Of a DNA stretch of 64,000 nucleotides, positions 7,467 through 63,875 are shown piece by piece. The stretch is from a plasmid. Below the pieces are notes generated by a model. It had not been told where the DNA came from. It saw only the letters and a list, made by a program, of their open reading frames with translations, and ran no database searches. The position numbers were made by a program, and so were the translations under genes. Every line of letters begins with the position of its first letter. The stretch's first letter is position 1. The stretch lies in sequence record NC_009705.1. One strand, given 5' to 3'.

Positions 7467-7490
7467 GCTGTATTATATTCAAGGTAACAT

Positions 7491-7844: not shown

Positions 7845-7893
7845 TTACGTCGTTCAATATAACCTCCAATTAACTTAGTTAGGATATAATCTA

Positions 7894-10141: not shown

Positions 10142-10300
10142 CGTCACATGGCATTTATTCGGATGAATAATCCAGAACTCAAAAACGGTGTTTTACACGA
10201 TGCCAAATCACTTGCATCTGACTGCGCTCACTACGTGAGCGAGTAGTAGACATTATTCAGATGGACATGGATACTATTCTTGAAAAAATACGCAGCTTAA

Positions 10301-11077: not shown

Positions 11078-11929
11078 TCACTCGCATCCCATCTCTTGAG
11101 CCAATGTTCCCTTCTGCGACTTAATGGTTTTTGCCACCTCTTCAGGTAAGGCCGACCAGATTTTCAATTTAGGGTTTGTTTTTTCTTCAATTGTATCAAC
11201 AGTAACTTGATAATCACAAAACTTCGCCGACTTAGCCGTATCTTGTTCCATCAAAAATGCAGAGTACTGACCTTCATCTGGCCCACTACCGATAAATATC
11301 ACTTTCCAATAACCACTTGGGATCTGAACAGAAGTATCAGCCGGCAATGTCGCTAAATCATAATCATATAAAGGGCCCGTAACAGTATACACGGCCGTTA
11401 TCTCAGGGCGATTTGCCAGTAGTCGTTCCTGATCCTCAAGCCGCGCCCATGCGCCTCGATTCAAATCTGATTTTTGCGGTGTGATATTGGACAAATAGTT
11501 TAGTGTCCTCCAATCATCATGCGCCGCTAAAGAACTCAACGGTGCCTGATGGCCACGATCAACGCCTAACTCCCCATTAGCTCCACTATATGCCGCAGGA
11601 GCCAGTGTATCCGTTACAGGTAAGCTTGGATCTCGCGCCCAGTTGCGGCGACGGCCACTGGCAAGAGTATCTTGAGTCACTTTATAAGCCACCCAATTTG
11701 CGAATTTAGTGCTACTGTTATTATTCAGTGTGTAAACATTTCGAATTAGCGTTTGATCACTACCCCCAGTAGGGCAGCCAACAAGGCAGTTATCAATTGT
11801 AACAACATCGTGTTCTATTGCCGTAGGGACTAAGAGTGGAGTATTAGCATAGGAAATTCTATGTTGAAATGTACAGACAAAAGATAAGGGAATAAAAACA
11901 GGCAAAAACTTAAATAAATTGAATTTCAT
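11078..11929 (-). CDS. Secreted DNA/RNA non-specific endonuclease (Serratia NucA family, DRGH active site)
   Basis: Signal peptide plus GVDRGHQAP catalytic motif. Confidence 0.65.
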   Translation of the reverse strand: MKFNLFKFLPVFIPLSFVCTFQHRISYANTPLLVPTAIEHDVVTIDNCLVGCPTGGSDQTLIRNVYTLNNNSSTKFANWVAYKVTQDTLASGRRRNWARDPSLPVTDTLAPAAYSGANGELGVDRGHQAPLSSLAAHDDWRTLNYLSNITPQKSDLNRGAWARLEDQERLLANRPEITAVYTVTGPLYDYDLATLPADTSVQIPSGYWKVIFIGSGPDEGQYSAFLMEQDTAKSAKFCDYQVTVDTIEEKTNPKLKIWSALPEEVAKTIKSQKGTLAQEMGCE

Positions 11930-12220: not shown

Positions 12221-13051
12221 CTAGAGCGCTTTATCATTGATTTTATTGATAACTTTCAAAAATTCGTAATTCGTCATATCGCTATTTATATAGCTCTTGA
12301 TATCTTTACCCATGTTATTACATAACATTATTATTTTTTCTAACTCGCTTTCAAATAAGCCAATCGATTCATTATACTTGGATAATGCAAGAGATACGGA
12401 ATATAACTGGCGTGATAATAACTTTTTATTATCAAAAGGCCAACCTGTAAAATTTGCATTACCACACATCGCATTTAAATTATGGACAAACTCCTTGATG
12501 TCTTTATCAGTGTAACTACTTACGTTATTTATAAGGCTTTTCAATTTTCGGACATCTGAGAGCAAATATTTTGCCTGAATAATATAAATCACTCGATTAT
12601 GACCTAACAGTAAATTAATCCATTTATATTTATGTTTAAGAAGAAGCTCATCAACAGCATTAAATTTAATAGTAGTTTGTTTTGAACCGTTCTTTTTAGA
12701 GTCCGAAATATACTTGTCGGTATGGTTATCATTGATATGCTTCCAGTACATTCTTGGTTTCTCATCATCCATGCAAATAGAGACCAATAAAACAATATCA
12801 TCGATAGATTGCCAATACTTCAAATTATCTAAGCCAACGGAAACATTGGGATTATTTCCGGATGTGGTCTTTATTTGAACACCGATAAAACAACCTACAG
12901 AACGTTTGTTATCATCAAAAAACTCAACCTGAGCATCTATCCCAACATCAATACTGAGCAAACGACATGGCCACTCAAAATACCGAGAAACCCAATATGC
13001 AAAATAGTTCTCACCAGCTTGGCCTATCGAACTTTTCTTTTGATAAATCAT
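12221..13051 (-). CDS. Restriction-endonuclease-like (PD-(D/E)xK, DUF4365-like N-terminus) protein with unknown C-terminal domain, very AT-rich
   Basis: GQAGENYFAYWVSRYFEWPCRLLSIDVGIDAQVEF...GVQIKT fits G..GE...W...D.G.D..vE...QxK. Confidence 0.35.
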   Translation of the reverse strand: MIYQKKSSIGQAGENYFAYWVSRYFEWPCRLLSIDVGIDAQVEFFDDNKRSVGCFIGVQIKTTSGNNPNVSVGLDNLKYWQSIDDIVLLVSICMDDEKPRMYWKHINDNHTDKYISDSKKNGSKQTTIKFNAVDELLLKHKYKWINLLLGHNRVIYIIQAKYLLSDVRKLKSLINNVSSYTDKDIKEFVHNLNAMCGNANFTGWPFDNKKLLSRQLYSVSLALSKYNESIGLFESELEKIIMLCNNMGKDIKSYINSDMTNYEFLKVINKINDKAL

Positions 13052-13572: not shown

Positions 13573-14703
13573 ATGAGCGAACTGATAAAACACAGCAGTA
13601 ACTTTTTAGCCGCGATCTCGCCGGACAACGATTGCTCTATCACAGCAACGAATGACTTCGAAGCGATGATGTCATGGCTTAATGGGTATAAAAAAAAGCC
13701 AATCAATACATCAAGAAACTACGCGAGAGAAGTTAAGCGCTACCTCATTTGGCTATCATGCCAAGGTTTAACGCTAGCTCAGGTAAAAATTGAGGACGTC
13801 TATGAGTATTTTAACCTACTAGAACGCCCAACAACTGAGTGGATCATTCCAGACAAAAAGACCGACAAAATATACCCAACTCAACTGATCAAGTATGGTG
13901 GCTTATCTAATCGCTCAATCAACTATACCCACACCGTACTTGGCCTATTTTACTCATTTCTGCAAGATGCAGGCTATTTAACGAAAAACCCGATAAATCT
14001 GGTCAAAAAAGCCAGCGCAACTACTGAAAGTGAGCAATATCGGCATTTAGACTTACCCGCTTGGCAAACTCTTTGGACTTGGATACTGGGGTACGAGAAC
14101 CGCGTAATCACAGAGGATCAACCAGCCAAGATGATAAAAAAAGCGAGTCGCTACCGATGGGTGTTTGCCTTGCTCTACCATTCTGGCATTCGCTGTGCAG
14201 AAGCGGCAAACGCGCTGATGAGTGATTTAGTTCGTAAAAACAATACATGGTCTCTGAAAGTCACGGGTAAAGGAAACAAAATGCGACTTGTGACTGTAAA
14301 CAGCCTTCTGCTGAAAGAGCTGATCCACTATAGGCGCTCCCTTCTTTTAACTGACTACCCTTCAAGTCATGATGATACCCCCTTGATCGTCTCGATACAG
14401 AAAAACAGACAAGGCTCCATGACGACAAGAACACTGTCTTCATTAATCAAAGAGGTGACAGAGCTGGTATGCGCAGATTGCCAAGATGATCAAATCACTC
14501 GTCAGATTGAAACCATGACGACTCACTGGTTACGCCACACTAACGCGACACACCGTTTTATGGCAGGAGCCAGCCTTGAAACAACCCAAGATGAGTTAGG
14601 CCATGCAGACCCAAGAACAACACGTATTTATGCCAAGACATCGAACGAAAAAAGGAAATTAGATGCCGAAAGACTGGCTGATTTATTTGATGGCATCGGT
14701 TGA
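13573..14703 (+). CDS. Tyrosine recombinase/integrase (phage integrase family)
   Basis: C-terminal HWLRHTNAT...LGHADPRTTRIYAK gives the R-H-R-Y catalytic signature. Confidence 0.75.
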   Translation: MSELIKHSSNFLAAISPDNDCSITATNDFEAMMSWLNGYKKKPINTSRNYAREVKRYLIWLSCQGLTLAQVKIEDVYEYFNLLERPTTEWIIPDKKTDKIYPTQLIKYGGLSNRSINYTHTVLGLFYSFLQDAGYLTKNPINLVKKASATTESEQYRHLDLPAWQTLWTWILGYENRVITEDQPAKMIKKASRYRWVFALLYHSGIRCAEAANALMSDLVRKNNTWSLKVTGKGNKMRLVTVNSLLLKELIHYRRSLLLTDYPSSHDDTPLIVSIQKNRQGSMTTRTLSSLIKEVTELVCADCQDDQITRQIETMTTHWLRHTNATHRFMAGASLETTQDELGHADPRTTRIYAKTSNEKRKLDAERLADLFDGIG

Positions 14704-50705: not shown

Positions 50706-51131
50706 ATGAGCGAAGACACTCTAAAATTAATCAACAACTTGCGCAGTTTACGTGCGTTTGCCAAGGAACTCGACATAGACTCTTTACGTGAGTTCCAAGA
50801 AAAATTGAATACGGTTATTCAAGAAAGAGAAAAAGAAGAAGAAGAAGCAAAACAAGAAGAACTTAAAAAAAGAGAGACACTTGAGCGCTTCCGCAATCAA
50901 ATAACTGAGGCAGGTATTAACCCAGAAGAAGTTGCGAACTTTTTAACAAACACCAAAACTGTGAATAAAGTTAAAAGTGTCCGCAAAAAACGAACGCCTA
51001 AATATGAATATTTAGACAGTAATGGAGAGGTTCGCCAATGGACAGGGCAGGGACGACATCCTCAACCTATTAGCGAAGCAATTAAAAACGAAGGTAAAAA
51101 ATTAGAGGACTTTTTAATAAAAAAAAGATAA
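50706..51131 (+). CDS. hns: H-NS family nucleoid-associated protein (plasmid-borne)
   Basis: N-terminus MSEDTLKLINNLRSLRA. C-terminus KYEYLDSNGEVRQWTGQGRHPQPI...GKKLEDFLIKK matches the H-NS DNA-binding motif. Confidence 0.85.
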   Translation: MSEDTLKLINNLRSLRAFAKELDIDSLREFQEKLNTVIQEREKEEEEAKQEELKKRETLERFRNQITEAGINPEEVANFLTNTKTVNKVKSVRKKRTPKYEYLDSNGEVRQWTGQGRHPQPISEAIKNEGKKLEDFLIKKR

Positions 51132-51170
51132 CACTTCTTCTTCTGAGTAAAATGAATAATAATTAGATAA

Positions 51171-51200
51171 AACAGGTGTCGTAATGACACTTGTTTTATT
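51171..51200 (+). terminator. Terminator-like hairpin after hns
   Basis: acaggtgtc...gacacttgt stem followed by TTTTATT. Confidence 0.35.
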
Positions 51201-51225
51201 AACCTCTTTACTGGATTACAAATAA

Positions 51226-51855
51226 ATGAAAATATTCAAAGCTGCCAAGAAAGTTGGCAAGTTTACTTTTATTACCATTCCATTATCTCTTTTCAGTTTT
51301 CATCAATTAAAAATAGGCAACAGTGTCATAAAATCATTATGGCAAAGTATTAACAGCCCTGTCTGTCCTCATTGTGATAAAGGGATACTAGAAGAGAGTG
51401 ACTCCATTGATATTGAGAAATTATTTATTGATACTAACGACAAGATTCAACACCACAACCCACACTTAAATAAATATTACTGTACTAAATGTGATTTTAG
51501 TTTAATTACCTCTAATAATGAATTAACATTACAAATAATGTCTTACAGGAAAATGCGATTCCAAAAAGAAATCACTGAGTCCGGCAGAAGCAAAGAAAGA
51601 AACACTTTAATTAGGCAACACACACATTCGTCTAGAATATTATTTTTTGTCTCTCTATTATGTTTTTTTGGTTTTCTATATTTAATAGTGAGTGGCTCAT
51701 CTATCATCATTGCAGCAAATTGGTTTTGTATTGCAGCCACACTCAGCATCCTTGCTATGAAAAAAAGCTACCGAGCTTGGCAGGTTGAAACGGGTAATAT
51801 CTTCATCAAGGGTGCATTTATTCATTGGCTTACTTATGGGAGATGGTTTATCTGA
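51226..51855 (+). CDS. Membrane protein with N-terminal zinc-ribbon (CPHC...CTKC) and C-terminal TMs
   Basis: Cys pairs plus 2 TM helices. Confidence 0.4.
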   Translation: MKIFKAAKKVGKFTFITIPLSLFSFHQLKIGNSVIKSLWQSINSPVCPHCDKGILEESDSIDIEKLFIDTNDKIQHHNPHLNKYYCTKCDFSLITSNNELTLQIMSYRKMRFQKEITESGRSKERNTLIRQHTHSSRILFFVSLLCFFGFLYLIVSGSSIIIAANWFCIAATLSILAMKKSYRAWQVETGNIFIKGAFIHWLTYGRWFI

Positions 51856-51856
51856 T

Positions 51857-52387
51857 ATGAAAATAATGGTTATTATCACTTTTTCTTTAATCACAATCAG
51901 CCATAATTTGAAAGCCGAAATACCTGCAATCAACAATACCAACTTTTATAGTTACCGACCTGCATCCATTGAGTGTGTTATTGAAGCGGCAAGACGGCAG
52001 GGTGTACCTGCAAATATTCTTTTATCTCTTGCCAGCCTAGAGTCTGGCAAAAATGGGCAAAGAGTCACTAATACTAATGGCTCTACTGATATAGGCCATT
52101 TTCAAATTAATACGATTAATTGGAATGATGGGAAATTTGCAGGTCTCCTTGAAATATCAGAGAACGATGTCGCTTTACGCGGTTGCTATAACGCTGAGTT
52201 AGCCGCATGGATTTTAAAATCTAGAATCAATGAAAGTAACGGACAAGACTTTTGGACGAAAGTCGCAAACTATCATAGTAAAACAAAAAAATATAATGAC
52301 ATCTACAAAGCCAAATTAATGCCTTTAGCTGTTCGCTGGGGAAATTGGTTAGAAAAGCGCGGTGAATACACCGTAACCTATCGTTAG
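51857..52387 (+). CDS. Lytic transglycosylase (SLT domain), T4SS-associated
   Basis: LESGKNG...DIGHFQIN catalytic motif. Signal peptide from MKIMVIITF; the track ORF starts earlier at 51785. Confidence 0.7.
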   Translation: MKIMVIITFSLITISHNLKAEIPAINNTNFYSYRPASIECVIEAARRQGVPANILLSLASLESGKNGQRVTNTNGSTDIGHFQINTINWNDGKFAGLLEISENDVALRGCYNAELAAWILKSRINESNGQDFWTKVANYHSKTKKYNDIYKAKLMPLAVRWGNWLEKRGEYTVTYR

Positions 52388-52405
52388 TTAACAAGAGAGA
52401 AATCT

Positions 52406-52921
52406 ATGTTTGCACACAACAATGTCACGTTAATCGGTAATCTGGGTGGTGATCGCAAGATCAAAACCAACGAACATACTGGAGAGATCGTAGGACTTAC
52501 CCTCTCTTTAGGTGTTTCGAAGCGAATCCCTGATCCCAATAATGAAGGCCAGTGGATTGATGGAGCCGATTGGTTCCAATTATTCATCAGTAGCAAAAAT
52601 CGGTCATTCGAGTTTTTAAAAAAACATGCCTTAAAAGGGACAATGATCACGGTCGCAGGTTACTTACGCCGTGAAACATGGGACTCAAAAACCCGTAAAG
52701 ATGAAAACGGCAACCCTATGCAGGATTCACGCTTAGATGTCGCTCCAACTGATATTAAAATTCTAAGATTTGCCAAGGTTCAGGATAACGAAACACCACC
52801 TGTAGATCCTGCGGAAGAGGAAACTGCAAGCGATGGCCAACAGCATGGGGATGCTGGCCTACCCACTCAATCACCTGAAGAACAGAATCAGGCTGATGAG
52901 CACTACAGCCAGAACCTTTAA
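52406..52921 (+). CDS. ssb: Single-stranded DNA-binding protein (SSB, OB-fold)
   Basis: NNVTLIGNLGGDRKIK and W/F-rich OB core with an acidic C-terminal tail. Confidence 0.75.
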   Translation: MFAHNNVTLIGNLGGDRKIKTNEHTGEIVGLTLSLGVSKRIPDPNNEGQWIDGADWFQLFISSKNRSFEFLKKHALKGTMITVAGYLRRETWDSKTRKDENGNPMQDSRLDVAPTDIKILRFAKVQDNETPPVDPAEEETASDGQQHGDAGLPTQSPEEQNQADEHYSQNL

Positions 52922-52947
52922 GTCTTGCCACACAATCAGGTAAAACA

Positions 52948-52973
52948 GGGGGAGCCACAGGCTTCCCTTTTTT
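52948..52973 (+). terminator. Terminator-like hairpin after ssb
   Basis: ggggagcc...gcttccc stem followed by TTTTTT. Confidence 0.4.
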
Positions 52974-53090
52974 ATCGGATATTTTTTCAGCATAAAAATG
53001 ATGCCCTCGGGGATGAGCTGTTTTCATTTCCGCCCCTGCCGCCTCCAGCACAGCGGCTTAGACAAATTCACTACTAACAAGGAAAAGATA

Positions 53091-53474
53091 ATGGGTCATG
53101 ACATAAAGAAATTGGCACAGCAGTTACCCACAAGCCATATGGCACTGACTCCGAAAACACCTGATGAGCGTAGTACTCTGACCATGCTAAAAGCCATTAA
53201 TGGTATGATGCTGGATATGCTAGCGGCTATTGCTCGTAAAGATTACAGTGACAGACGTTGACGCCAGCAAGAAGGGATAACCAAAGCCAAAGCAGCAGGA
53301 AAATTTAGGGGACGACAAGCTGACAGACTTCTGAATGCGAAAATAATAGAGCTACGTATTAAAAATGGCCAAAGTATTCGCGATACTGCCAGACTCACTG
53401 GTGTATCTGAAAGAACGGTTATACGGATAGAGAATAAAGCAAAAGTGGCTGTTGAAAGCAATGAAATTAAATAG
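53091..53474 (+). pseudogene. Serine recombinase (resolvase/invertase) remnant: N-terminally truncated, in-frame TGA at 53259
   Basis: MLDMLAAIARKDYSDRR-stop-RQQEGITKAKAAGKFRGR...QSIRDTARLTGVSERTV matches the resolvase E-helix and HTH. Catalytic Ser domain absent. Confidence 0.5.
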
Positions 53475-53670
53475 GTGATCGGTCATTTTCAAAAGAGGGT
53501 AAATTTAGGGAGTTTTCCGGTAAAAGGGAGTAATACCTAATGTGCTGCACTGACAGGCAAGGGCTGAACGTCCCCGGACCGCCTCCCCCGACAGCGCCAA
53601 ACACAACATCCAGTAGTGGTCCCGCTGATAGAGCACAAAATGCAGGGCAGGGGGCGCGATTAGGGTGTCT

Positions 53671-53686
53671 TAGGGTAAAGACGAAT
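53671..53686 (+). repeat. GGTAAAGCC-box, degenerate copy
   Basis: tagggtaaagacgaat. Confidence 0.4.
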
Positions 53687-54012
53687 ATTTGAAAAATAAT
53701 GGCATATCCACTCCAGAATACTCAAATAGTAAATTTTCGTTGAGCTTTTAATGATATCGTTTACGTTTCAATGGGACTGGAGCTAGGGTTATGACACCTA
53801 TATTAGAAGAGAAAATAAGAGATGCTTTTCGGCAATTTAAAAGAAATAAAAAGACTGAAACAGATATACAACCGTTAATGGATATACTGGATAAAACATT
53901 CGGATCAGGTCACTATTCCGCCAACCCTACAACAATCACAAATGCAATGGAACATCTTAACGGCTATTGAATATCTATTCAGGATAATAATATATTCTTT
54001 CCAAAACCTTCA

Positions 54013-54852
54013 GTGTTTAAAATTAAGGACACCACATTTAATTCATGGGGTGAGTCGTTAAATGAGGCGGAAACCATTCTTCCTGCATATTTTTCTTTCG
54101 GTGAAATAATTCCTATCATCAGTAGAATTTATGATGCTGATAATAAATCGGATAAAATACAGAGAGGAAATGAAGCATTGGGGAAATTATTTCCCCCACA
54201 AACTCTGGCTCTTCTTTCTGTTGATTTATACCCCAAGTTTTCTGCTCTCAGTGATTCACATGCACAGATAAGGGAAACCGTAGAGGCTTACTGCTTGGGC
54301 CATTACCGCGCAGCAATAACAACCCTACTCCCTTGTATTGAGCATGCCATAAAAGCATTAGGTGTAAGACTAGACATAGCTGAACCAGAGAATATAAGTA
54401 CGAAGTTTCTGTTGGAAATAATAAAAAAATCTCTAAAAAGTTACATCTGCGATTATGTTTACAGAGATTATGATTGGGTTCCTCAAGAGGTTAGCAATAA
54501 TGATTTTTTCAATAACTTTGATGAACGATATCAAATAATATCAAACGGTCGGAATTATATTCAAAACCATCTTTATCAAAATACGGGTAAATATATCGGC
54601 ATCTCGCAGTTAAACCGACATAGTATCTTACATGGATTTATGACAAAGTATCATGAACAATCCAATTATCTCAGGCTGATAAACTTATTGAATAATATAT
54701 GTTTTATGTTGACCATGTCTGGAGAGGCCGTGTCACTAATGCTACGAGAAGAAACAAGTAATTGTTCGGCATTTAATAGATATCTGCTAATGTTAGAAAG
54801 AGTAGGAAGTATCAGAGCTAAGTATCTTGATCTACATGGAATATGCCGTTAA
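54013..54852 (+). CDS. Hypothetical protein with HEPN-like Rx4H motif (NRHSILHG); possible Abi-like
   Basis: Single Rx4H motif near the C-terminal third. AT-rich gene. Confidence 0.3.
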   Translation: MFKIKDTTFNSWGESLNEAETILPAYFSFGEIIPIISRIYDADNKSDKIQRGNEALGKLFPPQTLALLSVDLYPKFSALSDSHAQIRETVEAYCLGHYRAAITTLLPCIEHAIKALGVRLDIAEPENISTKFLLEIIKKSLKSYICDYVYRDYDWVPQEVSNNDFFNNFDERYQIISNGRNYIQNHLYQNTGKYIGISQLNRHSILHGFMTKYHEQSNYLRLINLLNNICFMLTMSGEAVSLMLREETSNCSAFNRYLLMLERVGSIRAKYLDLHGICR

Positions 54853-54878
54853 CTCCATAAAAGTGAGACTTTGATGAT

Positions 54879-54918
54879 TAGGTAGTTTTAGGGTAAAGCC
54901 AAGATGGATTGGCAGAAG
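54879..54918 (+). repeat. GGTAAAGCC-box copy (taggtagttttagggtaaagccaagatggattggcagaag)
   Basis: About 80% identical to the copy at 57114. Confidence 0.7.
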
Positions 54919-54968
54919 ACAAACGGTGCTGAAAAAGAGGAGACTGACGAACGTCAGTCCTCAGAACA

Positions 54969-55289
54969 TCAAATATAATAGTGACTATTTATGGTTGTCA
55001 TATTTTTTTCAACCGCAACATCTTTGTCCATCTGAGTAATGACTGGACTTATTTCTTTAATAAACCACTCCCACGAATTAAGGTTACTCTCTTCTGGGGT
55101 GATGGTTTTTTTTATTCGTGAACGACGCAAAAGCATACCACCCGTTGAGCGCTTAATTTCTTTGAGTCCACATAAACGCAACAGTTCGTTAGCTTCGAGT
55201 TCCCAAGAGGAGCGTTCGGTGCTATCGCATGGAGAAAAACCAGAGATTTCTTTAAGACGTTTAACTACAAGAACTTTATTAACTGGCAT
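54969..55289 (-). CDS. Hypothetical protein (106 aa)
   Basis: ORF. Confidence 0.3.
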   Translation of the reverse strand: MPVNKVLVVKRLKEISGFSPCDSTERSSWELEANELLRLCGLKEIKRSTGGMLLRRSRIKKTITPEESNLNSWEWFIKEISPVITQMDKDVAVEKNMTTINSHYYI

Positions 55290-55501
55290 AGTAAGTATCC
55301 ATCCTTAATGAGAAAGGATGCACTATAAACAACAATATAAGTACTGTCAAATAAAATTAACCTAATTATATAATACTTCAATCTACCTGCTCAAGCAAGT
55401 AATTTTTAATGTTGTTTATCCTGTTGTTTTTTATAGATAAAATTTAATTGGCATTCGCAAAGTTAAAATTGCCACTTACTTACATAGTGATTACAGATAT
55501 T

Positions 55502-55536
55502 GGTACTCTGCGGGTAAAGCCAAGGACAAGCAATGG
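55502..55536 (+). repeat. GGTAAAGCC-box copy (ggtactctgcgggtaaagccaaggacaagcaatgg)
   Basis: Motif read directly. Confidence 0.6.
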
Positions 55537-55608
55537 TGCATAACGCCCTTGCACGCACTGCATTATTGCAGTACATTAAATGAAGACATCGGGCGCAGGG
55601 GAAAGGCA

Positions 55609-56451
55609 ATGGCAACGATTACGGTACGTATTGATGATGAATTAAAACAGAGCTTTGATGATGTGCTCAGTGAATTGAGACTATCACAAACAGAGGTGAT
55701 TATTAACACCTGTAAATATATTGTCCAGAATAAAAAACTGCCTTTTGTTGTTATCGAGAAACTGAAAACACCAGAAGAGTTGAGACGCGAAATTCTTGAT
55801 AAATTTAATCTTGCCTATTTTGTTATTAGAGATTTGGCGAGCAACCAAAAAAATAACAACCCAATATATCCCAATCACTGTAGAATTATTATCTCTACAT
55901 TGCGCGGCTTCACTGATTTGTTTAATCGTTTCGATGAGGCTATCGAAAATGCTATCCCCCGCGATGAATATAAGTCTCTATTAGCGGCCTGTGGGGATGC
56001 CTTATATATCGCCAATAGATTAGACCATAGTGTTAACTATTCTGGCGCAGAATATGTTTTGCTAAATGAATTGACCACCTATATCAATATCGCGGTCATA
56101 TCGTTCGGACGGGTATTAAGTATTGGGAAAGACATTATCCGTCATTTTCAGGTTAAATTGATTGAAAATAATATAGCAATTAAGCATTGGGACACCTTTG
56201 AGGCTCGTCTCACAGAAGCACTTGAGGAAGGAACTTTATTCCAGTCGGCAGTCATTAATCTAGTCATGACAGGCCGTAAACAGGGGATTCGACTCAGAGT
56301 AAGGGACAATAGCCAGAGCCTTGATGCGGAAACCTTGCATCATGCGTTAATACCCTTTGGATTCTCGCGTGAACAGGCAGAAAGCATCATCAATAACTGC
56401 CAAACCGATATACCTGACTCCCTTAATAAGGAAATACAAAATCATGACTAA
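55609..56451 (+). CDS. RelB/DinJ-like ribbon-helix-helix N-terminus fused to ~230-aa domain of unknown function
   Basis: MATITVRIDDELKQSFDDVLSELRLSQTEVIINTCKYIVQNKKLPF resembles the DinJ antitoxin fold. Alternative upstream start at 55549. Confidence 0.45.
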   Translation: MATITVRIDDELKQSFDDVLSELRLSQTEVIINTCKYIVQNKKLPFVVIEKLKTPEELRREILDKFNLAYFVIRDLASNQKNNNPIYPNHCRIIISTLRGFTDLFNRFDEAIENAIPRDEYKSLLAACGDALYIANRLDHSVNYSGAEYVLLNELTTYINIAVISFGRVLSIGKDIIRHFQVKLIENNIAIKHWDTFEARLTEALEEGTLFQSAVINLVMTGRKQGIRLRVRDNSQSLDAETLHHALIPFGFSREQAESIINNCQTDIPDSLNKEIQNHD

Positions 56452-56489
56452 TATATGTCACAACCCACGATTAACAAGAGGGTCTAAAG

Positions 56490-56718
56490 ATAGCAAGACT
56501 GAGTTTTGAGAGAAAAAAATTACTGTACCGTACCGCTGATGCGCTTTCTGTTGCCTATGATAATTTGGAATTTCTATCCTCCGATGAAGTGAGGGAGTTT
56601 ATCGAAGGTGGTGACATTACCGTTGCTGCACTGGCGTATATTACTGGTTTACAAGAAGATGAAATCATTGAAGAGGCCGTTAAACAAGCTAAAAAACGAG
56701 AGCTTAAGCAGGGTTAAT
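56490..56718 (+). pseudogene. Paralogue of 5809-6030 gene with ATG to ATA start-codon change (no alternative start in frame)
   Basis: IARLSFERKKLLYRTADALSVAYDNLEF...DITVAALAYITGL...EEAVKQAKKRE aligns with the 73-aa protein. In-frame stop lies 15 nt upstream. Confidence 0.5.
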
Positions 56719-56765
56719 CGATAAAGATAAGTTACACGGTTATCATAATACAAAGCACCATAACG

Positions 56766-56787
56766 CCCCGTAAGGGGCTTTTCTTTG
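56766..56787 (+). terminator. Rho-independent terminator (gcccc gtaa ggggc + TTTTCTTT)
   Basis: Hairpin plus T-run. Confidence 0.5.
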
Positions 56788-56814
56788 CCCGTTCGCTAGA
56801 TTGGCTGCGATTTG

Positions 56815-56868
56815 GCAGTCTAAGGGTAAAGCCAAGGGCAGCAAGAAAGGGTAAAGCAGGGCAACGGC
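56815..56868 (+). repeat. GGTAAAGCC-box copy with partial second unit (ctaagggtaaagccaagggcagcaagaaagggtaaagcagggcaacgg)
   Basis: Motif read directly. Confidence 0.6.
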
Positions 56869-56890
56869 TGGCGAACCAGCCAGTTCGAAG

Positions 56891-57058
56891 TTATTGAGGT
56901 TTCGCTTGTTCTACATTAAAATGATACATAACGGCTTCATGCTCGAGTTTGGTCAGTTTGACATTAACATCGGCTTTCCCTGAACTGGCTCCCTGCTTTA
57001 AAGCGTCATTAACTTTTGTTAACCCTGATGTTAGAGCTTTATCTTTCGATGAAATCAT
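56891..57058 (-). CDS. Small protein (55 aa) with strong RBS (GGAAGGAG-7-ATG); not in the ORF track (below size cut-off)
   Basis: MISSKDKALTSGLTKVNDALKQGASSGKADVNVKLTKLEHEAVMYHFNVEQAKPQ. AAGGAG lies 7 nt upstream of ATG. Confidence 0.45.
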   Translation of the reverse strand: MISSKDKALTSGLTKVNDALKQGASSGKADVNVKLTKLEHEAVMYHFNVEQAKPQ

Positions 57059-57113
57059 TATTATCTCCTTCCATATTATTAATCTAGATTAATACTAAAT
57101 CAGTATACAGCAT

Positions 57114-57150
57114 TAGGTAGTTTCTGCGTAAAGCCGAATGCGGCAAAAAG
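57114..57150 (+). repeat. GGTAAAGCC-box copy (taggtagtttctgcgtaaagccgaatgcggcaaaaag)
   Basis: Motif read directly. Confidence 0.65.
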
Positions 57151-57465
57151 CAAAACAGAACTAAGCCATATCATATGACAATCATTCGCATCTAATGTAT
57201 TTGTGCTATTTATGTTCCCACTGTATAGTGGCGGCATAAATCGTTATTTTTGGTAGATCGCGGATTAAGAAAATGGGCAGCTAAAATAAATCCCATTTTA
57301 ATCTACCCGCTATTATCACCGAAGTAGTCGCATGACAAATATTGACAATACGGCGGCGGGGCCGTTTATTTTGAGCGTCAAAAACAGTTTTTAATTTAGT
57401 GTATAATCATCCTGTTCGTTAATTTCAGTTAAAGGGAAGCCATGCCAAAAGACTAAGCCACTATC

Positions 57466-57855
57466 GTGAGACCACGAAAATCACAACGGCCATTTCAATT
57501 TATGTCATTTAATAATGAGGGTATTCTTTTGCTTATTAATCATAACGCCGTACTAGAAGTCGCTCCCTGTCCTGAAGCCCCAACAGAAGACGACTGGAAG
57601 CCTATCGGGATAACATACAGCGTAGTGCAGGATAGAAATACTGGAATTATCTGCGGTGAAGGGGAGGTCAGTAAAAAATGGGCGGATAATTTTTATCGTT
57701 ATTATGCACAACAACTATCTGAAAACGGCAGGACATGGCTACGTGTAAATGATGATTTATTCCGGGTTAACCTCTATATCAACATAATCTCGACGCACAA
57801 TAACTTGACTGTCTTTACATTTAAACTTATCGGCATCCCCCACCCCAGTTTGTGA
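57466..57855 (+). CDS. Hypothetical protein (129 aa; alternative start MSFNNEG at 57502)
   Basis: ORF. Confidence 0.35.
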   Translation: MRPRKSQRPFQFMSFNNEGILLLINHNAVLEVAPCPEAPTEDDWKPIGITYSVVQDRNTGIICGEGEVSKKWADNFYRYYAQQLSENGRTWLRVNDDLFRVNLYINIISTHNNLTVFTFKLIGIPHPSL

Positions 57856-58256
57856 TAATAAAGAGGTCGGCAGACATGACATTAGACACCCTGAAAAGTT
57901 ATTTAGAAATGGATACCCCGTCATATACCCAACAATGTGATCATATCGCCTCACTGAACGCCGCCCGTGCTGATTTTGCTATACCACTGAAAGAGATCAG
58001 GTTGGCACCGACTGGCGGTATGCTTTTACCACGTTCGCGATACCGTGCTCCCCCCGGACACGCCGATAAAGCCGCTTGGACGCATATCACAAACCAGATA
58101 CAAGAATGGGTGGCTCTGATTGAGCGTCATGAGCAGCATCATACCGTCTCTTGGCCCCAACGCTGCCTGAAATGGGCAAAAAGGCCCTTATATTCAATAA
58201 TAACGTCTGTGATCGGGGCCGGGGTGATGCATTATCTGGGGTGGGACCAAGGGTGA
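57852..58256 (+). CDS. Hypothetical protein (134 aa), start overlaps upstream stop (ATGA)
   Basis: Translationally coupled pair. Confidence 0.35.
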   Translation: MIIKRSADMTLDTLKSYLEMDTPSYTQQCDHIASLNAARADFAIPLKEIRLAPTGGMLLPRSRYRAPPGHADKAAWTHITNQIQEWVALIERHEQHHTVSWPQRCLKWAKRPLYSIITSVIGAGVMHYLGWDQG

Positions 58257-58398
58257 CCGAATTATCCGTTTTAGTGTTGCAGGTAGCCACTTTCGGGTGG
58301 CCCCCCTCACATTGTGAGGTAGTTTGGGGAGAAAACCGAATAAGGTCGAGCTGAAGAGGGGACAACTGTCCCCGTTGTGTTTTTATCTGCTAAGCGGG

Positions 58399-58839
58399 TT
58401 AGATCTTTAACTCAACATGATAGTTTTGCAATGTTGAGAAACAGTAGGATTTTAGTTTATTTTTATCGTGTTGTTTAACTGCTTCTATGTACCGAACGAC
58501 ATATTTCGTAAACTGCGTGGTGATAAAGAAAGATTTTTTTTGAATAATAATAAATTCTTCATCAGGAATTTTAAACGGAACATCGGATATGTATTCATCT
58601 TTCATCAATAAGACAGCTTTTGAGTAATCCAGAGCCTTATTCCCTGAAAAATTATAGCATTGCTTATGGTTAGCATTCGATCTTAAAGGAATTCCAAAGC
58701 GCAAACCGACTATTTCAACGAGAACAATGCCATACCCTCTTGTTTTGTCGCTAGTCCACGCATTGCCTCTTTTGTCCAACACCTCGACTAAGTGCTTGTT
58801 TTCAATGTAAAAAGCATCCTCAAGTTTTTTAATTTCCAC
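58399..58839 (-). CDS. toxN: ToxN/AbiQ-family endoribonuclease toxin (type III toxin-antitoxin)
   Basis: FYIENKHLVEVL...RGYGIVLVEIVGLRFGIPLRSNA aligns with ToxN FYTISSKYIEYL...IGIVLEIQGHKYLAPLTS. Confidence 0.6.
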   Translation of the reverse strand: MEIKKLEDAFYIENKHLVEVLDKRGNAWTSDKTRGYGIVLVEIVGLRFGIPLRSNANHKQCYNFSGNKALDYSKAVLLMKDEYISDVPFKIPDEEFIIIQKKSFFITTQFTKYVVRYIEAVKQHDKNKLKSYCFSTLQNYHVELKI

Positions 58840-58876
58840 AAATCATGCCCTGTCTTGCCATCGGCTTTGGCCACAA

Positions 58877-58906
58877 ACAAAAAAACCTCCCGTTAGGAGG
58901 TTTTTT
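58877..58906 (-). terminator. Rho-independent terminator between RNA repeats and toxN (cctcctaacgggagg + U-run on minus strand)
   Basis: Hairpin flanked by A and T runs. Position is canonical for type III TA. Confidence 0.65.
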
Positions 58907-58914
58907 CTTTCGTT

Positions 58915-59013
58915 GAACACTTCTTTTTTTAACGTGGGGCTGTTCTTCCACCACATCTTTCTGCTTGGATGCTTCTTTTTTTTACGTGGGGAACATCCTT
59001 CCACCACATCTAA
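58915..59013 (-). ncRNA. toxI: ToxI-like antitoxin RNA: two ~47-nt direct repeats
   Basis: gaacacttctttttttaacgtggggctgttcttccaccacatcttt / ggatgcttctttttttttacgtggggaacatccttccaccacatcta. Confidence 0.55.
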
Positions 59014-59018
59014 CTATT

Positions 59019-59048
59019 ACAATAGTGATATTTTTGTGTTTTGTCAAC
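59019..59048 (-). promoter_or_regulatory. Sigma70-like promoter (TTGACA-18-TATTGT on minus strand) driving repeats and toxN
   Basis: Hexamers read on the reverse complement. Confidence 0.5.
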
Positions 59049-59978
59049 ACCACGCACCTTCAATGAATTGAGCTGCGGTGCCATCAAATCAGGGTTTTAT
59101 GCGCAAAGGCGAAATCGGAAAATTGTCCGTACACATGTTGATACCACCTAAAAAACCCGATAAGGAATATCCGAACATACAATATCTAGAAAATATTCAA
59201 TATCTGTTTTTTCTTCTCGCCGACGGCAATATTATCTATAAGGATAGTTGGAACGGTATGGCTACAGCGTAGTTGTGTAAAGAGTGTCAAGGTATTGGCA
59301 CTCTACTGCTACAACAGGTCTTAAACCTACCAAATATTTATGTGAGAACAGCATATATTTCGTTTCCCTACAAACCTCTATATGAATTAACCCAAATCAA
59401 TGATCCATAAGGATCAATCCAACTCCCCCCTGTCCTGCTAGACCAGTCTTTTATCGTTGCTGGAAGTACCACAGAGGCTTTGTTCGCAACATGCCGTTGC
59501 GAAACCTTACTTACTGATTATTGAGCTACCTTAGCTTTCCTGCTTTGTTATTTTGCATGGCCATCTGTAAGCAATCAGATGGCCTCTTATAAAAAGTATC
59601 ATATTTTTTATTTTTACCAACTGGTTCCAGTTGTAGCAAAAACGTGGCTTAGCACTGACTCCGTGCCGTACCAGCAGATCCGGATGGCATCCTATCTGAA
59701 GGTATTCCGGTAGCTGACATTTTACTCGAACAACTGGATGTAGAAGAAACAGCACTACGTGACCCAAAAGAATGTGTTCACGAGTGCGCTAATTAGCCAG
59801 CATGGAAGAAACGTAGTGATGTACATGCCAATTTTGATGATCGTGTAGCTCTTTACGTTAACAAATATTAGTGGTTTTAGCTCTGCCCTTTGTATTAGGG
59901 CATCGGTAAGCTCATTACTATAAAGGTACAAAATACGATTACCTCTAAAATTCACCTGTCAAAACTCAGAGCACAAAA

Positions 59979-60157
59979 ATGACACCAGAAGAAGTAAGAG
60001 AGCTACGCCTACTGCTGGCCTAAGTGAAGAGGCCACGGCTCAGCTATTTGGATACAAGAACAAATATGCATGGCGACGTAGGGAATACCCGCAGTTAGCA
60101 CTAATTACCGTAAAATTAAGGTCGCTGAATACAATACCTTGCTACAATTGGCGGTGA
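59979..60157 (+). pseudogene. XRE/MqsA-like HTH gene interrupted by -1 frameshift (MTPEEVRELRLLLA / LSEEATAQLFGYKNKYAWRRREYPQLALITVKLRSL)
   Basis: Two consecutive frames together give a canonical HTH antitoxin-like protein. Stop at 60021 in frame 1. Confidence 0.4.
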
Positions 60158-60420
60158 AAAAACGGGTTGAGCGTGAATCTGGCTACATGGAGAGCGATTT
60201 ATCTCCATTGAATAATGACCTTCAAACCTACTGGGACGAATACCTGAAGTCGAAGGAAAATACTCAGCAAGATCAGTTGAAGGAAAAAACCGTTAAGCTT
60301 GGCTGTCCTAATAATCTTGATCTTGCACGTTATGTTGAAAGCTTAGAAGTTCAAGTGAGAGAAATGAGTGCTCAACTTGAGAAGCTGGGACAACGGAAAA
60401 AAGTGTCTCACCTGATCTAA
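60139..60420 (+). CDS. Hypothetical protein (93 aa; TTG start)
   Basis: ORF. Low confidence, overlaps the end of the frameshifted HTH. Confidence 0.25.
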   Translation: MLQLAVKKRVERESGYMESDLSPLNNDLQTYWDEYLKSKENTQQDQLKEKTVKLGCPNNLDLARYVESLEVQVREMSAQLEKLGQRKKVSHLI

Positions 60421-60780
60421 AGATCCCGCAGATGATCCCATTATTGATCGCGTGATCCAACAGAGATCTCTATGAAGATCATCAAAGATAAAGAATATTT
60501 ACTCTCTACCAAATATCTTCCCTGTACCGCTCTTTAAGCAGTTTTGTAATCTAACCTAGTCGGTATAGGGATAAGTGTAAAAATCCTCACATAATCGATT
60601 TCAGCGCGTTTTAGACCATCCCTAGCACCCGATCATCATCATTAACGATTGGATCTTAAGACAAAATATCAAACAGCTTGCTGTGCGATTAGCTCGTTTT
60701 TTTTTAGATCTAATTCTCTTTTACTTCTGTTTATTTCCCTGAAGACAATCCATTGAATTATATATTATTTTTACGGTTCA

Positions 60781-61500
60781 GGTGAGGTAATTTGGGTACA
60801 TAGGTGAGGGGTTTTGGGTACTCAAGTGAGGAATTTTGGGTACATAGGTGAGAGGATTTGGGGTTAATAACTTGATTATTCGTAAAATTTTTATAGGTGA
60901 GGGAATTTGGGGTGGATAACTCTTTAACCCCTTATCTATAGGTGAGAGAATTTGGGTACGATAAGTGAGTGATTTTGGGCATCAAAGGTGAGGGAATTTG
61001 GGTTAGGTAAAATCAATACCTATTAATGGATAAATTCAGGTTTTCCGGTAAGTTAGCGGGGTTTGGTATTCTCAGGTGAGAGAATTTGGGCACCATAGGT
61101 GAGGGATTTTGGGTATCATAGGTGAGGGATTTTGGGCACCATAGGTGAGGGAATTTGGGCACCACAGGTGAGAGAATTTGGGCACCATAGGTGAGGGATT
61201 TTGGGCGTCATAGGTGAGAGATTTTGGGCACCATAGGTGAGGGATTTTGGGTATCAATAGGCTTTCGTGACGGTTTAATGTTCAAAAGTGACACTGTATT
61301 GCTCAAAAGTGACACTGTAATTAAATAATTCAATTTTCAGGTGAGTGATTTTGGGTATCACCCGTCATTTTTAGCCGGATTGGCTCTGATGAGCATGGCT
61401 TGGGATCGTCAGTAAATAATTTATAGGTGAGTGATTTTGGGCATCAGTGTGATGTGAATCAACTTCACAACAATAGGTGAGAAAAAACTTTTATTTCTCA
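60781..61500. repeat. oriV iteron region: at least 18 copies of ~23-bp ATAGGTGAGGGATTTTGGGCACC, 8 in perfect tandem (61068-61258); DnaA-box-like GTGGATAAC at 60907; two 18-bp repeats CAAAAGTGACACTGTA (61281-61320)
   Basis: All read directly. Immediately upstream of the rep gene. Confidence 0.85.
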
Positions 61501-61546: not shown

Positions 61547-62575
61547 TTGATGACTATGCTTACAATGAACTTACCCGCACCGCAACCGGCGCTGAATGGC
61601 GTTGTAGTTCAGTCAAACTCTCTGATTGACGCGGCATACAGCCTGACTATCGATGAAATGCGCCTTGTTTACATCGCTATGTTGAAAATCGATAGCAAAG
61701 TTAAATTAGAGAATGGGTTAATGCCTGAAATCAATGTCACCACATTAGAATTCAGGGAAGCATTCAATATCAAGTCGCACACCATGTACAATCGATTGAA
61801 TCAGCTAGGTGACGCCCTACTGGTCAAACCCATTATTACTTTTGAGTACGACGAAGAAAAGCAGGAAACAGTAAAGAGAAAGCGGGTGTGGTTTACGAGT
61901 GTTAGCTATGTTGATGATCAAGAATCCAAAGCCATTAATTTACGTTTCTCACCTGAACTGCTGCCATTCCTCTACGCGCTAAAAGATAACTTCACCAAAG
62001 TTGACTTCACTTATCTGGCTGAACTGGATAGCCCCTTTGCTATGCGTCTCTACCAGTGGCTGCAAAAATATAGAAGAATGAAGAAGTACAACAAAGGTGA
62101 TGGGCTGGTCGAAACCGAACCCTTTAGTTTAGAAGAAATTAAAAACAGAACAGGGCTGAGTTCTAAGTACCCAGAGTACAAAATTTTTAAACGCGACGTA
62201 CTTGATCCTGCGATCCATAAAATAAACCGAGTCACCGATATCTCTGTGACTTACAAGCCCGTAAAAAAAGGGAAGACAATCATCGCGATTATCTTTGCCT
62301 ATGTAGAAGAACAGGGCGGCGTGTCATCTAAACCTTGCCGTGCAAGACTGCCGACCCGACCAAAAGTGACAGTAGGATCTAATGCTGAAGGTGAATGGGC
62401 CAAACGCTGCATTCACATTATGGAGAGTTTCAGAAAAGCACTGCTTGAGTATGATCCCAATGAAAAGCTGCCAATGCCTGACCTCAAGAAATTACTGAGC
62501 TACTACGAAATCGTGGGTGACTCGCATAAAGCCAGCAAAGTGAAAGCAGAGATCGCTAGCCGGACTGGGAAATAA
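61547..62575 (+). CDS. repA: Rep_3-family (RepB/RepA-like) iteron-binding replication initiator
   Basis: N-terminus VVQSNSLIDAAYSLTIDEMRLVYIAMLKI is a Rep_3 winged-helix signature. Located next to iterons. Confidence 0.65.
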   Translation: MMTMLTMNLPAPQPALNGVVVQSNSLIDAAYSLTIDEMRLVYIAMLKIDSKVKLENGLMPEINVTTLEFREAFNIKSHTMYNRLNQLGDALLVKPIITFEYDEEKQETVKRKRVWFTSVSYVDDQESKAINLRFSPELLPFLYALKDNFTKVDFTYLAELDSPFAMRLYQWLQKYRRMKKYNKGDGLVETEPFSLEEIKNRTGLSSKYPEYKIFKRDVLDPAIHKINRVTDISVTYKPVKKGKTIIAIIFAYVEEQGGVSSKPCRARLPTRPKVTVGSNAEGEWAKRCIHIMESFRKALLEYDPNEKLPMPDLKKLLSYYEIVGDSHKASKVKAEIASRTGK

Positions 62576-63875
62576 GATACTCAAATCGTTCCTGAGTCCT
62601 CGTATCACCGATTTTTCTGCAATAATTTACAATGAGCTGAAGATCCTCTCTCTTCAGCTCAAGCCTACTATCAAACCTTTTCAATTCCTCCCGATAATAA
62701 ATCAATTTAGATCTATTCGTCCTCGCCCATTCACCCTCTTCATGGCTACCCGACACAACATGTGGCCGTTTTAATAATGCGGGCCTCTCAGGACGGAATC
62801 GTTTTGGATCATTGTCCGTTCCCGTTAGCGTGTTCTTCACCAATCTGGCTATATGATTCACTTTATTCCTGATGCTACCGGAAAACACGGGCGCTAAAGG
62901 TTTGTCATCAGTAATCGTGCTGTTGACGGTATTGATCCACTGAACATCTGGCTCTACGGCCATTGGTTTTGGTATGGCTTCTGGTGGCAATTCTTGGGAA
63001 TATACCTGCTGTGGAGGCTGCTCTGCTTCTGCTTCGGATTCAATTACTTCCTCCATAAGTGGCAGGACTTCCTCTTCCGTTGCAGGATTACGGCGGCTTA
63101 AATTTCTGAACCTAAAATGGGTGATCTGATTGCCCTTCATACAATCCTTGAGCAATTCAATAGTAATTTTGACACCAGTATTTTGCTCAATCAATTTGGC
63201 AAGTGATTTCAATCGCTTAGAGATTTCACAGATCTGATCATAGGTTTTAGAACTGAAATTGAAAAAATCTTTAATGATATCAACAGAGTAAAATCCTTGT
63301 TTGCTTCCAGTTTTAAATTTATCTCTGAGAGCAATACAGAAGAGTTTGATCTGACTGACTGAAGTACATTTCATCAAAATGTCATAAGGTAACTCAACGT
63401 AATTACCGGTAAGCCCGTATAAAAAAGGCTTGGTATCATAATTGACCGTGATTTCTATATTGCCACTTTGATGAAACTCTTCACTATCCGCTTTAACGGG
63501 ATAACTAAACTCTGAAATTAAATTAGTGTGTTTGACTCGCTTAATATCTTCTTCAGGAGTAATCCATTCTATTACAGCATTCTTTAACGCGATGATTAAT
63601 CCACGGGTCGTTTGCACATTTATCGCTGATTGCTGCTTAATGAAACTGTGTATTTTCCCTTTATAATTCATTAATTTCCCAAGCTCGTTAACTGAACGAG
63701 CAGAAAAAGTACGATTCTTTTTAGAGACGAAATGATCCACTCCATCTAAAACAGAGTGCCGTCTGAAAGTTATTCCCGCCAAAGTAGTTAAATAAAGACG
63801 ATATCCTATCAAATTCATTCTTGAGCTAAATAGATATTCGACAAACTCATTAGCAATGCGGATGGTTTTATTCAT
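62556..63875 (-). CDS. Second Rep_3-family replication initiator, convergent with and overlapping (20 bp) the first
   Basis: LIGYRLYLTTLAGI N-terminus, middle KPFLYGLTGNYVELPYDILMKCTSVSQIKLFCIALRDKF, C-terminal HEEGEWAR paralogous to EGEWAKR of the first Rep. Confidence 0.5.
   Translation of the reverse strand: MNKTIRIANEFVEYLFSSRMNLIGYRLYLTTLAGITFRRHSVLDGVDHFVSKKNRTFSARSVNELGKLMNYKGKIHSFIKQQSAINVQTTRGLIIALKNAVIEWITPEEDIKRVKHTNLISEFSYPVKADSEEFHQSGNIEITVNYDTKPFLYGLTGNYVELPYDILMKCTSVSQIKLFCIALRDKFKTGSKQGFYSVDIIKDFFNFSSKTYDQICEISKRLKSLAKLIEQNTGVKITIELLKDCMKGNQITHFRFRNLSRRNPATEEEVLPLMEEVIESEAEAEQPPQQVYSQELPPEAIPKPMAVEPDVQWINTVNSTITDDKPLAPVFSGSIRNKVNHIARLVKNTLTGTDNDPKRFRPERPALLKRPHVVSGSHEEGEWARTNRSKLIYYREELKRFDSRLELKREDLQLIVNYCRKIGDTRTQERFEYLISQSG

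Follow-up and report, generated by a model that had tools for sequence, protein, structure and literature searches.

In a plasmid of Yersinia (sequence record NC_009705.1), a short box of DNA recurs between the small genes that follow ssb, and the locus raises the question of what these boxes do. We analysed a stretch of 64,000 nucleotides of this Dot/Icm-type (MPF_I) plasmid, hereafter the window. A first-pass annotation, made from the letters of the window, likened the boxes to the repeated single-strand promoters (Frpo-like) or regulatory elements of plasmid leading regions. Comparison with other plasmids points elsewhere: the boxes are, in our judgment, probably core recombination sites of a ResD-family tyrosine recombinase that plasmids encode, and they would delimit exchangeable cassettes.

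Six copies of a 26-bp site in one orientation

A repeat search (family D4) recovered the box, GGTAAAGCC, on the plus strand at 53659, 54877, 55498, 56810 and 57112, confirming all five copies of the first-pass annotation together with their places and their common orientation. A sixth, degenerate copy occupies 58314–58343 (repeat family D6). The core GGTAAAGCCRA, allowing at most one mismatch, has nine matches in the 64-kb window where 1.9 are expected, and five of the nine are clustered in the array. A weight matrix derived from 44 unique sites at 16 loci, used with a threshold score of at least 10, gave exactly six matches in the whole window, all of them on the plus strand and within 53659–58343, against a mean of 0.04 matches in shuffled windows. 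The sites are as follows.

53659–53688, plus strand: site 1, ATTAGGGTGTCTTAGGGTAAAGACGAATAT; the leader-proximal 'first' site and the positional homologue of the pYV site found 260 bp before the recombinase gene
54877–54906, plus strand: site 2, ATTAGGTAGTTTTAGGGTAAAGCCAAGATG (repeat family D4, weight matrix)
55498–55527, plus strand: site 3, TATTGGTACTCTGCGGGTAAAGCCAAGGAC (repeat family D4, weight matrix)
56810–56839, plus strand: site 4, ATTTGGCAGTCTAAGGGTAAAGCCAAGGGC (repeat family D4, weight matrix)
57112–57141, plus strand: site 5, ATTAGGTAGTTTCTGCGTAAAGCCGAATGC (repeat family D4, weight matrix)
58314–58343, plus strand: site 6, GTGAGGTAGTTTGGGGAGAAAACCGAATAA; degenerate, score 13.7

The conserved unit is shorter than the ~38 bp first proposed. 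Across 37 unique sites, information is confined to positions 2–27, with none outside this 26-bp block, and the 3' extension '...GGCA.AAG' is not a feature of the family, carrying at most 0.6 bit per position. The consensus of these sites is TTWGGYAsTyT-nn-GsGTAAAsCCrAg, in which positions 13–14 are the least conserved inside the block. Inverted arms, TTGGC at positions 3–7 and GCCAA at positions 22–26, share a dyad axis at 14/15; at full length the arms are TTGGCAGT and AAAGCCAA, with ~8 bp between them. This centre (about positions 11–18, for example CTGCGGGT) is asymmetric, and a site therefore has a direction. Two arm types are found among the sites, TTTGGCA...GCCAAG and TTAGGTA...GCCGAA, and sites with hybrid arms occur where cassettes of unlike type adjoin. 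In four of the five cassettes of the window, the starting and the ending arm are of like type. This pattern of arm types hints at the mechanism, and we take it as suggestive only.

The boxes do form a distinct family that punctuates a run of small accessory genes after hns, the SLT transglycosylase gene and ssb, as had been proposed. A short-query blastn search of PLSDB found the motif in Yersinia plasmids only. A scan of GTDB species representatives returned Y. ruckeri (two sites), Y. pekkanenii (one) and Edaphovirga (one), the remainder being single matches at chance level, and a scan of JGI metagenomes yielded single, chance-level matches only.

Plasmid mosaics that change over inside the sites

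After megablast had shown matches that start and stop at the boxes, we compared the flanks of 40 sites systematically (loci in other plasmids are denoted L001, L002 and so on, where needed with the position of the site). In more than 30 site pairs, one flank was 88–100% identical and the other unrelated, and the switch always fell inside the 30-nt site. The right flank of site 2, for example, is 100% identical to those of L001:8001, L002:7988 and L014:12001, and the left flanks are unrelated; for site 3 it is the left flank that is 100% identical (L001:8624, L002:8611 and L014:12615) and the right flanks that are unrelated. Site 4 shares its right flank with L008:14090 at 97% identity and has an unrelated left flank. 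Site 5 is identical to the site at L001:6037, with the right flank in common and the left not.

Whole units can be followed in the same way. A unit of ~620 bp, cassette B (window 54877–55498), stands between sites in L001, L002, L014 and L049, in at least three contexts besides that of the window (L001, L002/L014 and L049), each with other neighbours. The locus L006:1164 combines the left flank of L002:7988 with the right flank of L002:8611, and cassette B is precisely absent; with both neighbours of the cassette joined at a single site, L006:1164 represents an empty site. The clearest case, which we take to be a recent event, is a pair of Y. ruckeri plasmids at 99.98% identity, pLT with 57,905 bp and the Barren Creek plasmid with 60,993 bp; they differ by exactly 3,088 bp, the span from site 4913 to site 8001 of L001. 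The corresponding site of pLT is a hybrid, GTTAGGTTTTCT followed by GAGGGTAAAGCCAAGATG, in which the left part comes from site 4913 and the right from site 8001, so the crossover falls between positions 9 and 13. A three-way comparison of L008:15000 with L009:15734 and L002:8611 puts, on our reading of the sequences, a further exchange into the interval of positions 14–22. The two crossover intervals would both be accounted for by exchange on either flank of a centre of ~8 bp.

The first-pass annotation named a variable placement of the boxes relative to genes in relatives as grounds for rejecting its reading, and such a placement is what we saw: relatives keep no fixed position of box and gene. 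The boxes keep one orientation while gene orientation varies. In the relatives, the array has a single orientation, which is constant relative to the recombinase gene described below.

The array is also set off from the plasmid that carries it. Outside the array, the window is 83–86% identical to two Dot/Icm-type plasmids, one of 127 kb from Y. enterocolitica Y128 and one of 121 kb from Y. ruckeri (CP099812), and this backbone homology ends at ~52998, just past ssb, and returns at ~59980, leading into the replication genes. The interruption indicates that window 52998–59980 is an accessory insertion. In the matching interval of the Y128 plasmid there are two unrelated genes and no sites, and the closest backbone (L024) is free of sites between ssb and rep. 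The identical array (100%) is present on contigs of 138–152 kb in two NCBI assemblies.

A candidate recombinase and competing explanations

Every array starts with a leader of ~190 bp that contains a conserved block (including AAATnGGTGATCGGTCA) and then a second arm pair spaced ~10 bp wider; alignment of the leaders places the first core site 130–155 bp past this wide-spaced element, which may be an accessory or autoregulatory binding site. The leader of the window and the gene remnant before it are as follows.

53118–53474, plus strand: remnant of a Tn3-type serine recombinase gene (tblastn, Pfam)
53464–53541, plus strand: leader of the array, conserved in nine plasmids (alignment)
53464–53490, plus strand: leader block 1, AAATTAAATAGGTGATCGGTCA (leader alignment)
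53504–53541, plus strand: wide-spaced element, putative accessory site, TTTAGGGAGTTTTCCGGTAAAAGGGAGTAATACCTAAT

Window 53464–53685 is 86% identical to the DNA directly upstream of the tyrosine recombinase gene of pYVe8081. The match of leader and site 1 to this upstream DNA indicates an array of which the window has kept the head, the recombinase gene having been replaced. In L006, L007, L009, L013 (pYVe8081) and L025, the recombinase, of 245–259 amino acids, is transcribed away from the array. In all ten Yersinia plasmids examined (these five with L026–L029 and L050), the ResD-family gene is preceded at 258–283 bp by a site that lies on the other strand. Five of the ten were picked by protein homology alone as a test of this prediction, namely pYE854, plasmids of Y. 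massiliensis, Y. bercovieri and Y. enterocolitica Y194, and pWKY. All five carried a site 258–261 bp upstream, some having one site in total and the Y. bercovieri plasmid six.

In a Serratia relative (L031), whose recombinase is 55% identical, the same leader is found with a site 299 bp upstream of the gene. Both arms of this site have changed together, to ATTGGGC...GCCCAAT, as predicted if each arm is recognized by one recombinase subunit. The Yersinia recombinase is 46% identical to the product of the gene after ccdA-ccdB (resD) of an F-type plasmid and 57% identical to the IncL/M homologue; relatives occur in more than 5000 PLSDB records. Its alignment with XerD and IntI4 covers the stretches of the catalytic Arg, the His-x-x-Arg motif and the Tyr nucleophile.

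Two further loci bear on this enzyme. Upstream of the ResD homologue of the IncL/M plasmid of pOXA-48 type (L010, ~3820–3850), the reverse complement reads GGTCAGTCCGCGTAAAGGCTTG and resembles the Yersinia site, with a spacing 2 nt shorter and a score below the threshold; it is at most a candidate for the IncL/M resolution site. The window encodes a tyrosine recombinase of its own, a Xer-like protein of 376 amino acids (13573–14703, plus strand), which we rejected as the enzyme: its relation to the ResD clade is remote (~25% identity across the catalytic domain), the other array loci lack it, and there are no shufflon-like repeats nearby. A direct repeat of 17 nt, ACAYGTATTTATGCCAA, occurs at 13099 and 14620.

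From this architecture we propose a mechanism. In the basic unit, the recombinase gene has one core site ~260 bp upstream, and the leader before that site contains the putative wide-spaced accessory site; this unit would serve as a plasmid multimer-resolution system. Behind it, some Yersinia plasmids have additional core sites, all oriented alike, each separating a module of 0.3–2 kb. Were two directly repeated sites to recombine, the module between them would leave as a circle bearing one site, and the circle, or another plasmid, could recombine with any resident site and so be inserted. Excision and insertion at the sites would allow modules to move and to be shuffled between unrelated plasmid backbones. 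Catalysis of these events by this recombinase, the circular intermediate, the role of the accessory site and supply of the enzyme in trans are what we infer from the sequences. In the window, the recombinase gene is missing and the leader abuts a dead serine recombinase remnant; with no cognate gene present, the array would be served from elsewhere in the cell or be frozen.

Several observations weigh against such a role for the ResD-family enzyme. No homologue of it was found in the window and 10 kb on each side (about 84 of 138–152 kb), and the gene beside the leader encodes a serine, not a tyrosine, recombinase in the window, L001, L002 and L014. Near resD of L011 and L012, the weight matrix has no match and the local DNA (TCACAAATCATAATTATGAATTGTGA...) is unrelated, and no similarity to the motif turned up in F and IncI1 relatives, so the link to rfsF, the site associated with ResD, is one of protein homology and position only. 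The centres of the six sites of the window all differ, and unlike centres would reduce recombination for most tyrosine recombinases. L001 contains an internal duplication of 1,874 bp (6149–8022 and 9792–11665; 99.8% identity, three genes), of which the right end lies in a site and the left boundary 51–112 bp inside the cassettes; with this end off-site, not all array rearrangements are site-to-site. On the supply of the enzyme, an array-bearing plasmid, pLT, and a plasmid with the recombinase and a site, pWKY, occur together in strain SC09; pLT is absent among the plasmids that we found to encode a recombinase of this clade. Supply of the recombinase in trans is plausible.

The gene beside the leader in these four loci invites another explanation, namely that crossover at the boxes is the work of the small serine recombinase encoded nearby, an enzyme of resolvase/invertase type. 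Its gene or remnant directly precedes the leader in each of them, and serine recombinase sites such as hix and gix are likewise ~26 bp long with a variable central dinucleotide, comparable to the 26-bp block and its least conserved positions 13–14. However, the dyad axis of the arms (14/15) is offset from that dinucleotide (13/14), and the enzyme brings its own res-like region upstream, where a res site normally lies, which is shared with a 90%-identical Tn3-family tnpR in Klebsiella; near non-Yersinia relatives of the serine recombinase (L003–L005, including the Klebsiella tnpR), no copy of the motif was found. Most plasmids with an array or a single site have the tyrosine recombinase at the leader and no serine recombinase. 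In the window, moreover, the serine recombinase is a pseudogene: ~98 N-terminal residues including the catalytic Ser are gone, there is an in-frame stop at 53259–53261, the tblastn alignment with the intact recombinases of L001 and L002 (212–215 amino acids; 62–72% identity) covers the C-terminal part only, and Pfam recognizes helix-turn-helix domains only. We regard the serine recombinase as an unlikely owner of the sites. The reading frame of this gene runs into the leader, which supplies its last 5–7 codons and the stop, and the fusion point is the same in several plasmids (window 53400–53490; L002 7700–7790; L001 4600–4700; columns 100–150 of the leader alignment). The leader block ATAGGTGATCGG resembles the reverse complement of a repeated motif, GGATCATCACCTAT, in the res-like region of the serine recombinase.

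Two explanations dispense with a dedicated recombinase. In one, the boxes are no more than conserved islands (former resolution sites or regulatory sites, for example), and breaks there are accidents of general homologous or illegitimate recombination. The off-site boundary of the L001 duplication, the differing central regions and the lack of a cognate recombinase in the window agree with this; on the other hand, a block of 26 bp offers little length for RecA-dependent exchange, the junctions of more than 30 comparisons agree to within a few bases, the 3,088-bp indel runs exactly from site to site and leaves a clean hybrid site, and each array holds a single site orientation that is fixed relative to the recombinase gene. 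We consider this explanation very unlikely. In the other, the boxes are single-strand promoters (Frpo/ssi-like) or operators for a plasmid regulator that would switch on anti-defence genes of the leading region soon after conjugative entry, as first suggested from their intergenic position, one orientation and place after ssb, and from cassette genes that are small and mostly of unknown function. A recombinase bound at a site could also influence transcription, and the ResD protein of F affects transcription at its own promoter. A promoter of the Frpo/ssi kind is a long imperfect hairpin of the transferred strand, in which -35 and -10 boxes are rebuilt upstream of the gene that it drives. The comparison of folds first proposed was carried out for the six copies and their flanks as single-stranded DNA, and no structure was shared: z-scores ranged from -0.2 to -2.4, the structures were unrelated and the strongest stems were those of neighbouring terminators. 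The conserved block has only 26 bp, no sigma70-like promoter or terminator overlaps any site, cassette B has a promoter-like site and a terminator of its own, and Rfam at E <=1 over 52900–61500 placed nothing on the sites and nothing above gathering score. Convergent genes end on both sides of sites 2, 4 and 6, so three of the six sites have no downstream gene that they could serve as promoter or operator, and exact mosaic junctions inside a site are unexpected for an operator. In relatives of MOBF type, the array is found past the relaxase gene, on its 3' side, and by analogy with R388 this would not be the leading side; in the window and its two backbone relatives, we identified neither a relaxase nor an oriT. 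The Frpo-like or regulatory role is thus unsupported, and of all explanations considered it is to us the least credible.

Recombination at the boxes by a ResD-family enzyme remains our preferred reading. Going further, we lean slightly towards a broader proposal, namely that in Yersinia a ResD-family multimer-resolution recombinase and its 26-bp core site became an integron-like array, a platform for cassette capture, and that arrays without a recombinase gene may be served in trans by co-resident plasmids. In this proposal, the same cassettes would circulate among unrelated conjugative backbones (MPF_F, MPF_T and MPF_I), and the modules of the arrays would be self-contained, of toxin-antitoxin, HEPN, Abi or nuclease type. 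The pYV virulence plasmid has the recombinase gene and one site.

Cassette contents and relation to known systems

Between ssb and the replication region, the array has six sites, and its cassettes number five or six.

53689–54876, plus strand: cassette A; open reading frame for 59 amino acids at 53791–53970 and a 279-amino-acid protein at 54013–54852 with a weak HEPN match
54907–55497, minus strand: cassette B; gene for 106 amino acids at 54969–55289
55528–56809, plus strand: cassette C; 280-amino-acid protein at 55609–56451 with an N-terminal RelB/DinJ fold, and an open reading frame for 74 amino acids at 56493–56717
56840–57111, minus strand: cassette D; open reading frame for 55 amino acids at 56891–57058
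57142–58313, plus strand: cassette E; open reading frames for 129 amino acids at 57466–57855 and 134 amino acids at 57852–58256
58399–59047, minus strand: possible last cassette, a type III toxin-antitoxin module just past the degenerate site 6

The cassettes differ in their distribution. Cassette A has no DNA match in PLSDB, and cassette B, with its strong promoter-like site at 55350–55322 (minus strand) and terminator at 54960–54941, is present in at least 13 Y. ruckeri plasmids. Cassette C is 90% identical to the cassette between sites 9920 and 11563 of pYR9 (L025), and cassette E is 98% identical to L001 6032–7047 and 9792–10690, as far as window 58124. In L044 (ERR3441060), a short-read assembly of the same plasmid, a contig ends inside cassette C at about window 56417; a second copy of the cassette elsewhere in that genome would explain the break.

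Past site 6, the gene at 58399–58839 encodes a TenpIN-family toxin of 146 amino acids (NCBIfam NF047358, 112 bits with a cutoff of 90, E 1.9e-32). It is preceded by two direct repeats of 35 nt, at 58924–58958 and 58977–59011 (D11), which are a candidate RNA antitoxin, and a promoter-like TTGACA-17-TATTGT at 59047–59019. The unit has no closing site, and the backbone homology returns at ~59980. Among the cassette genes, Pfam and NCBIfam recognized the weak HEPN match, the RelB N-terminal fold and the TenpIN toxin only; PADLOC gave no match and PHROGs gave families of unknown function only.

The array follows a group of backbone genes, in which Pfam bore out the first assignments of hns, the SLT transglycosylase and ssb.

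50706–52921, plus strand: backbone genes before the array, 86% identical and syntenic with the Y128 and CP099812 plasmids
50706–51131, plus strand: hns (Pfam)
51226–51855, plus strand: protein of 209 amino acids of unknown function (backbone)
51785–52387, plus strand: SLT transglycosylase (Pfam)
52406–52921, plus strand: ssb (Pfam)

On the other side of the array, window 60770–61450 holds at least 14 copies, in three blocks, of iterons of 22–23 bp with the consensus AGGTGAGGGATTTTGGGCACCAT. They lie upstream of two replication genes of Rep_3 type (61547–62575, plus strand; 62556–63875, minus strand), and the iteron array is presumably the origin. Elsewhere in the window, which is of a conjugative-type plasmid, three genes on the minus strand encode a 470-amino-acid protein with a PAAR motif (778–2190), a non-specific DNA/RNA endonuclease (11078–11929; Endonuclease_NS, E 7e-46) and a DUF4365 protein (12221–13051). 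The arrays of relatives also hold PAAR, TssD/Hcp and CAAX-protease genes, and together these hint at toxin and immunity cargo.

The nearest relatives of the system are those built on ResD. In IncI1, IncR and IncFII plasmids, rfsF has been described as a point at which gene sets are switched (PMC8004404, PMC9412624). The ResD-rfsF systems of F, IncI1, IncR and IncFII plasmids likewise pair a ResD homologue (46% identity to the ccdA-ccdB-linked gene) with a cognate site beside the gene. They are described with one rfsF per system, or with two systems (rfsF-resD and rfsF-rsdB) in pST1023, whereas the Yersinia plasmids have up to six or seven sites in an ordered, same-orientation array with small cassettes. 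The Yersinia site is also unrelated to the F-type region adjacent to resD, and it stands upstream of the gene behind a leader of ~190 bp.

Two other kinds of system share the modular layout. In Acinetobacter pdif modules (PMC13141974, PMC9947245), short tyrosine recombinase sites bound small sets of genes that occur in many plasmid contexts and orders and are rich in toxin-antitoxin and accessory genes. The Yersinia arrays resemble them in their small modules, short bounding sites and varied plasmid contexts. However, pdif modules depend on the host XerC/XerD and on dif-like sites of 11-6-11 in alternating orientation, whereas in Yersinia the candidate enzyme is plasmid-encoded and the sites have one orientation. 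Comparing the Yersinia arms directly with those of E. coli dif, we saw no resemblance. With integrons, the arrays share a divergent tyrosine recombinase gene with the first site beside it, a same-orientation array of sites separating cassettes, identical cassettes in different arrays and a flavour of toxin-antitoxin and defence genes; arrays without the recombinase gene resemble CALIN elements. The recombinase scores far below the integron-integrase models, at 58.6 bits against a cutoff of 265 for TIGR02249 and 43 against 435 for NF011946. Integron attC sites are folded hairpins of 57–141 nt, whereas the Yersinia sites are 26-bp cores of duplex type with no common fold as single-stranded DNA. 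Integron cassettes are promoterless, mostly in one orientation and served by a common promoter, whereas in the Yersinia cassettes either strand may be coding, and cassette B comes with a promoter-like site and terminator of its own.

TnpI/IRS of Tn4430 is similar in that a tyrosine recombinase gene is preceded by a core site with accessory motifs on one side. There, core-only sites can recombine without topological selectivity, and this system offers a model for how the core-only sites of an array might both integrate and excise. It differs in the clade of the recombinase, the transposon context and the single site per element. The shufflon (Rci/sfx) has inverted sfx sites in pilV beside rci, whereas the Yersinia sites are direct repeats outside pilV.

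Among open-access papers and bioRxiv preprints, we found no description of such arrays. Integrons and dif modules are the known cassette systems, and the array described here brings the ResD family together with a layout like that of integrons and with simple core sites of duplex type. If our interpretation is correct, it would represent a third natural route, besides integrons and Acinetobacter dif modules, from short recombinase sites to stores of exchangeable plasmid cassettes, and it would mean that an ordinary multimer-resolution system can evolve into a gene-capture device. The compact 26-bp site and the 256-amino-acid recombinase form a testable pair, and the arrays supply a defined list of mobile cassettes of unknown function that are good candidates for defence, anti-defence or addiction. 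Such a system would also account for the mosaic accessory regions of Yersinia plasmids, including those of the fish pathogen Y. ruckeri and those of plasmids that may share a cell with pYV, which itself encodes a related recombinase and carries one site.

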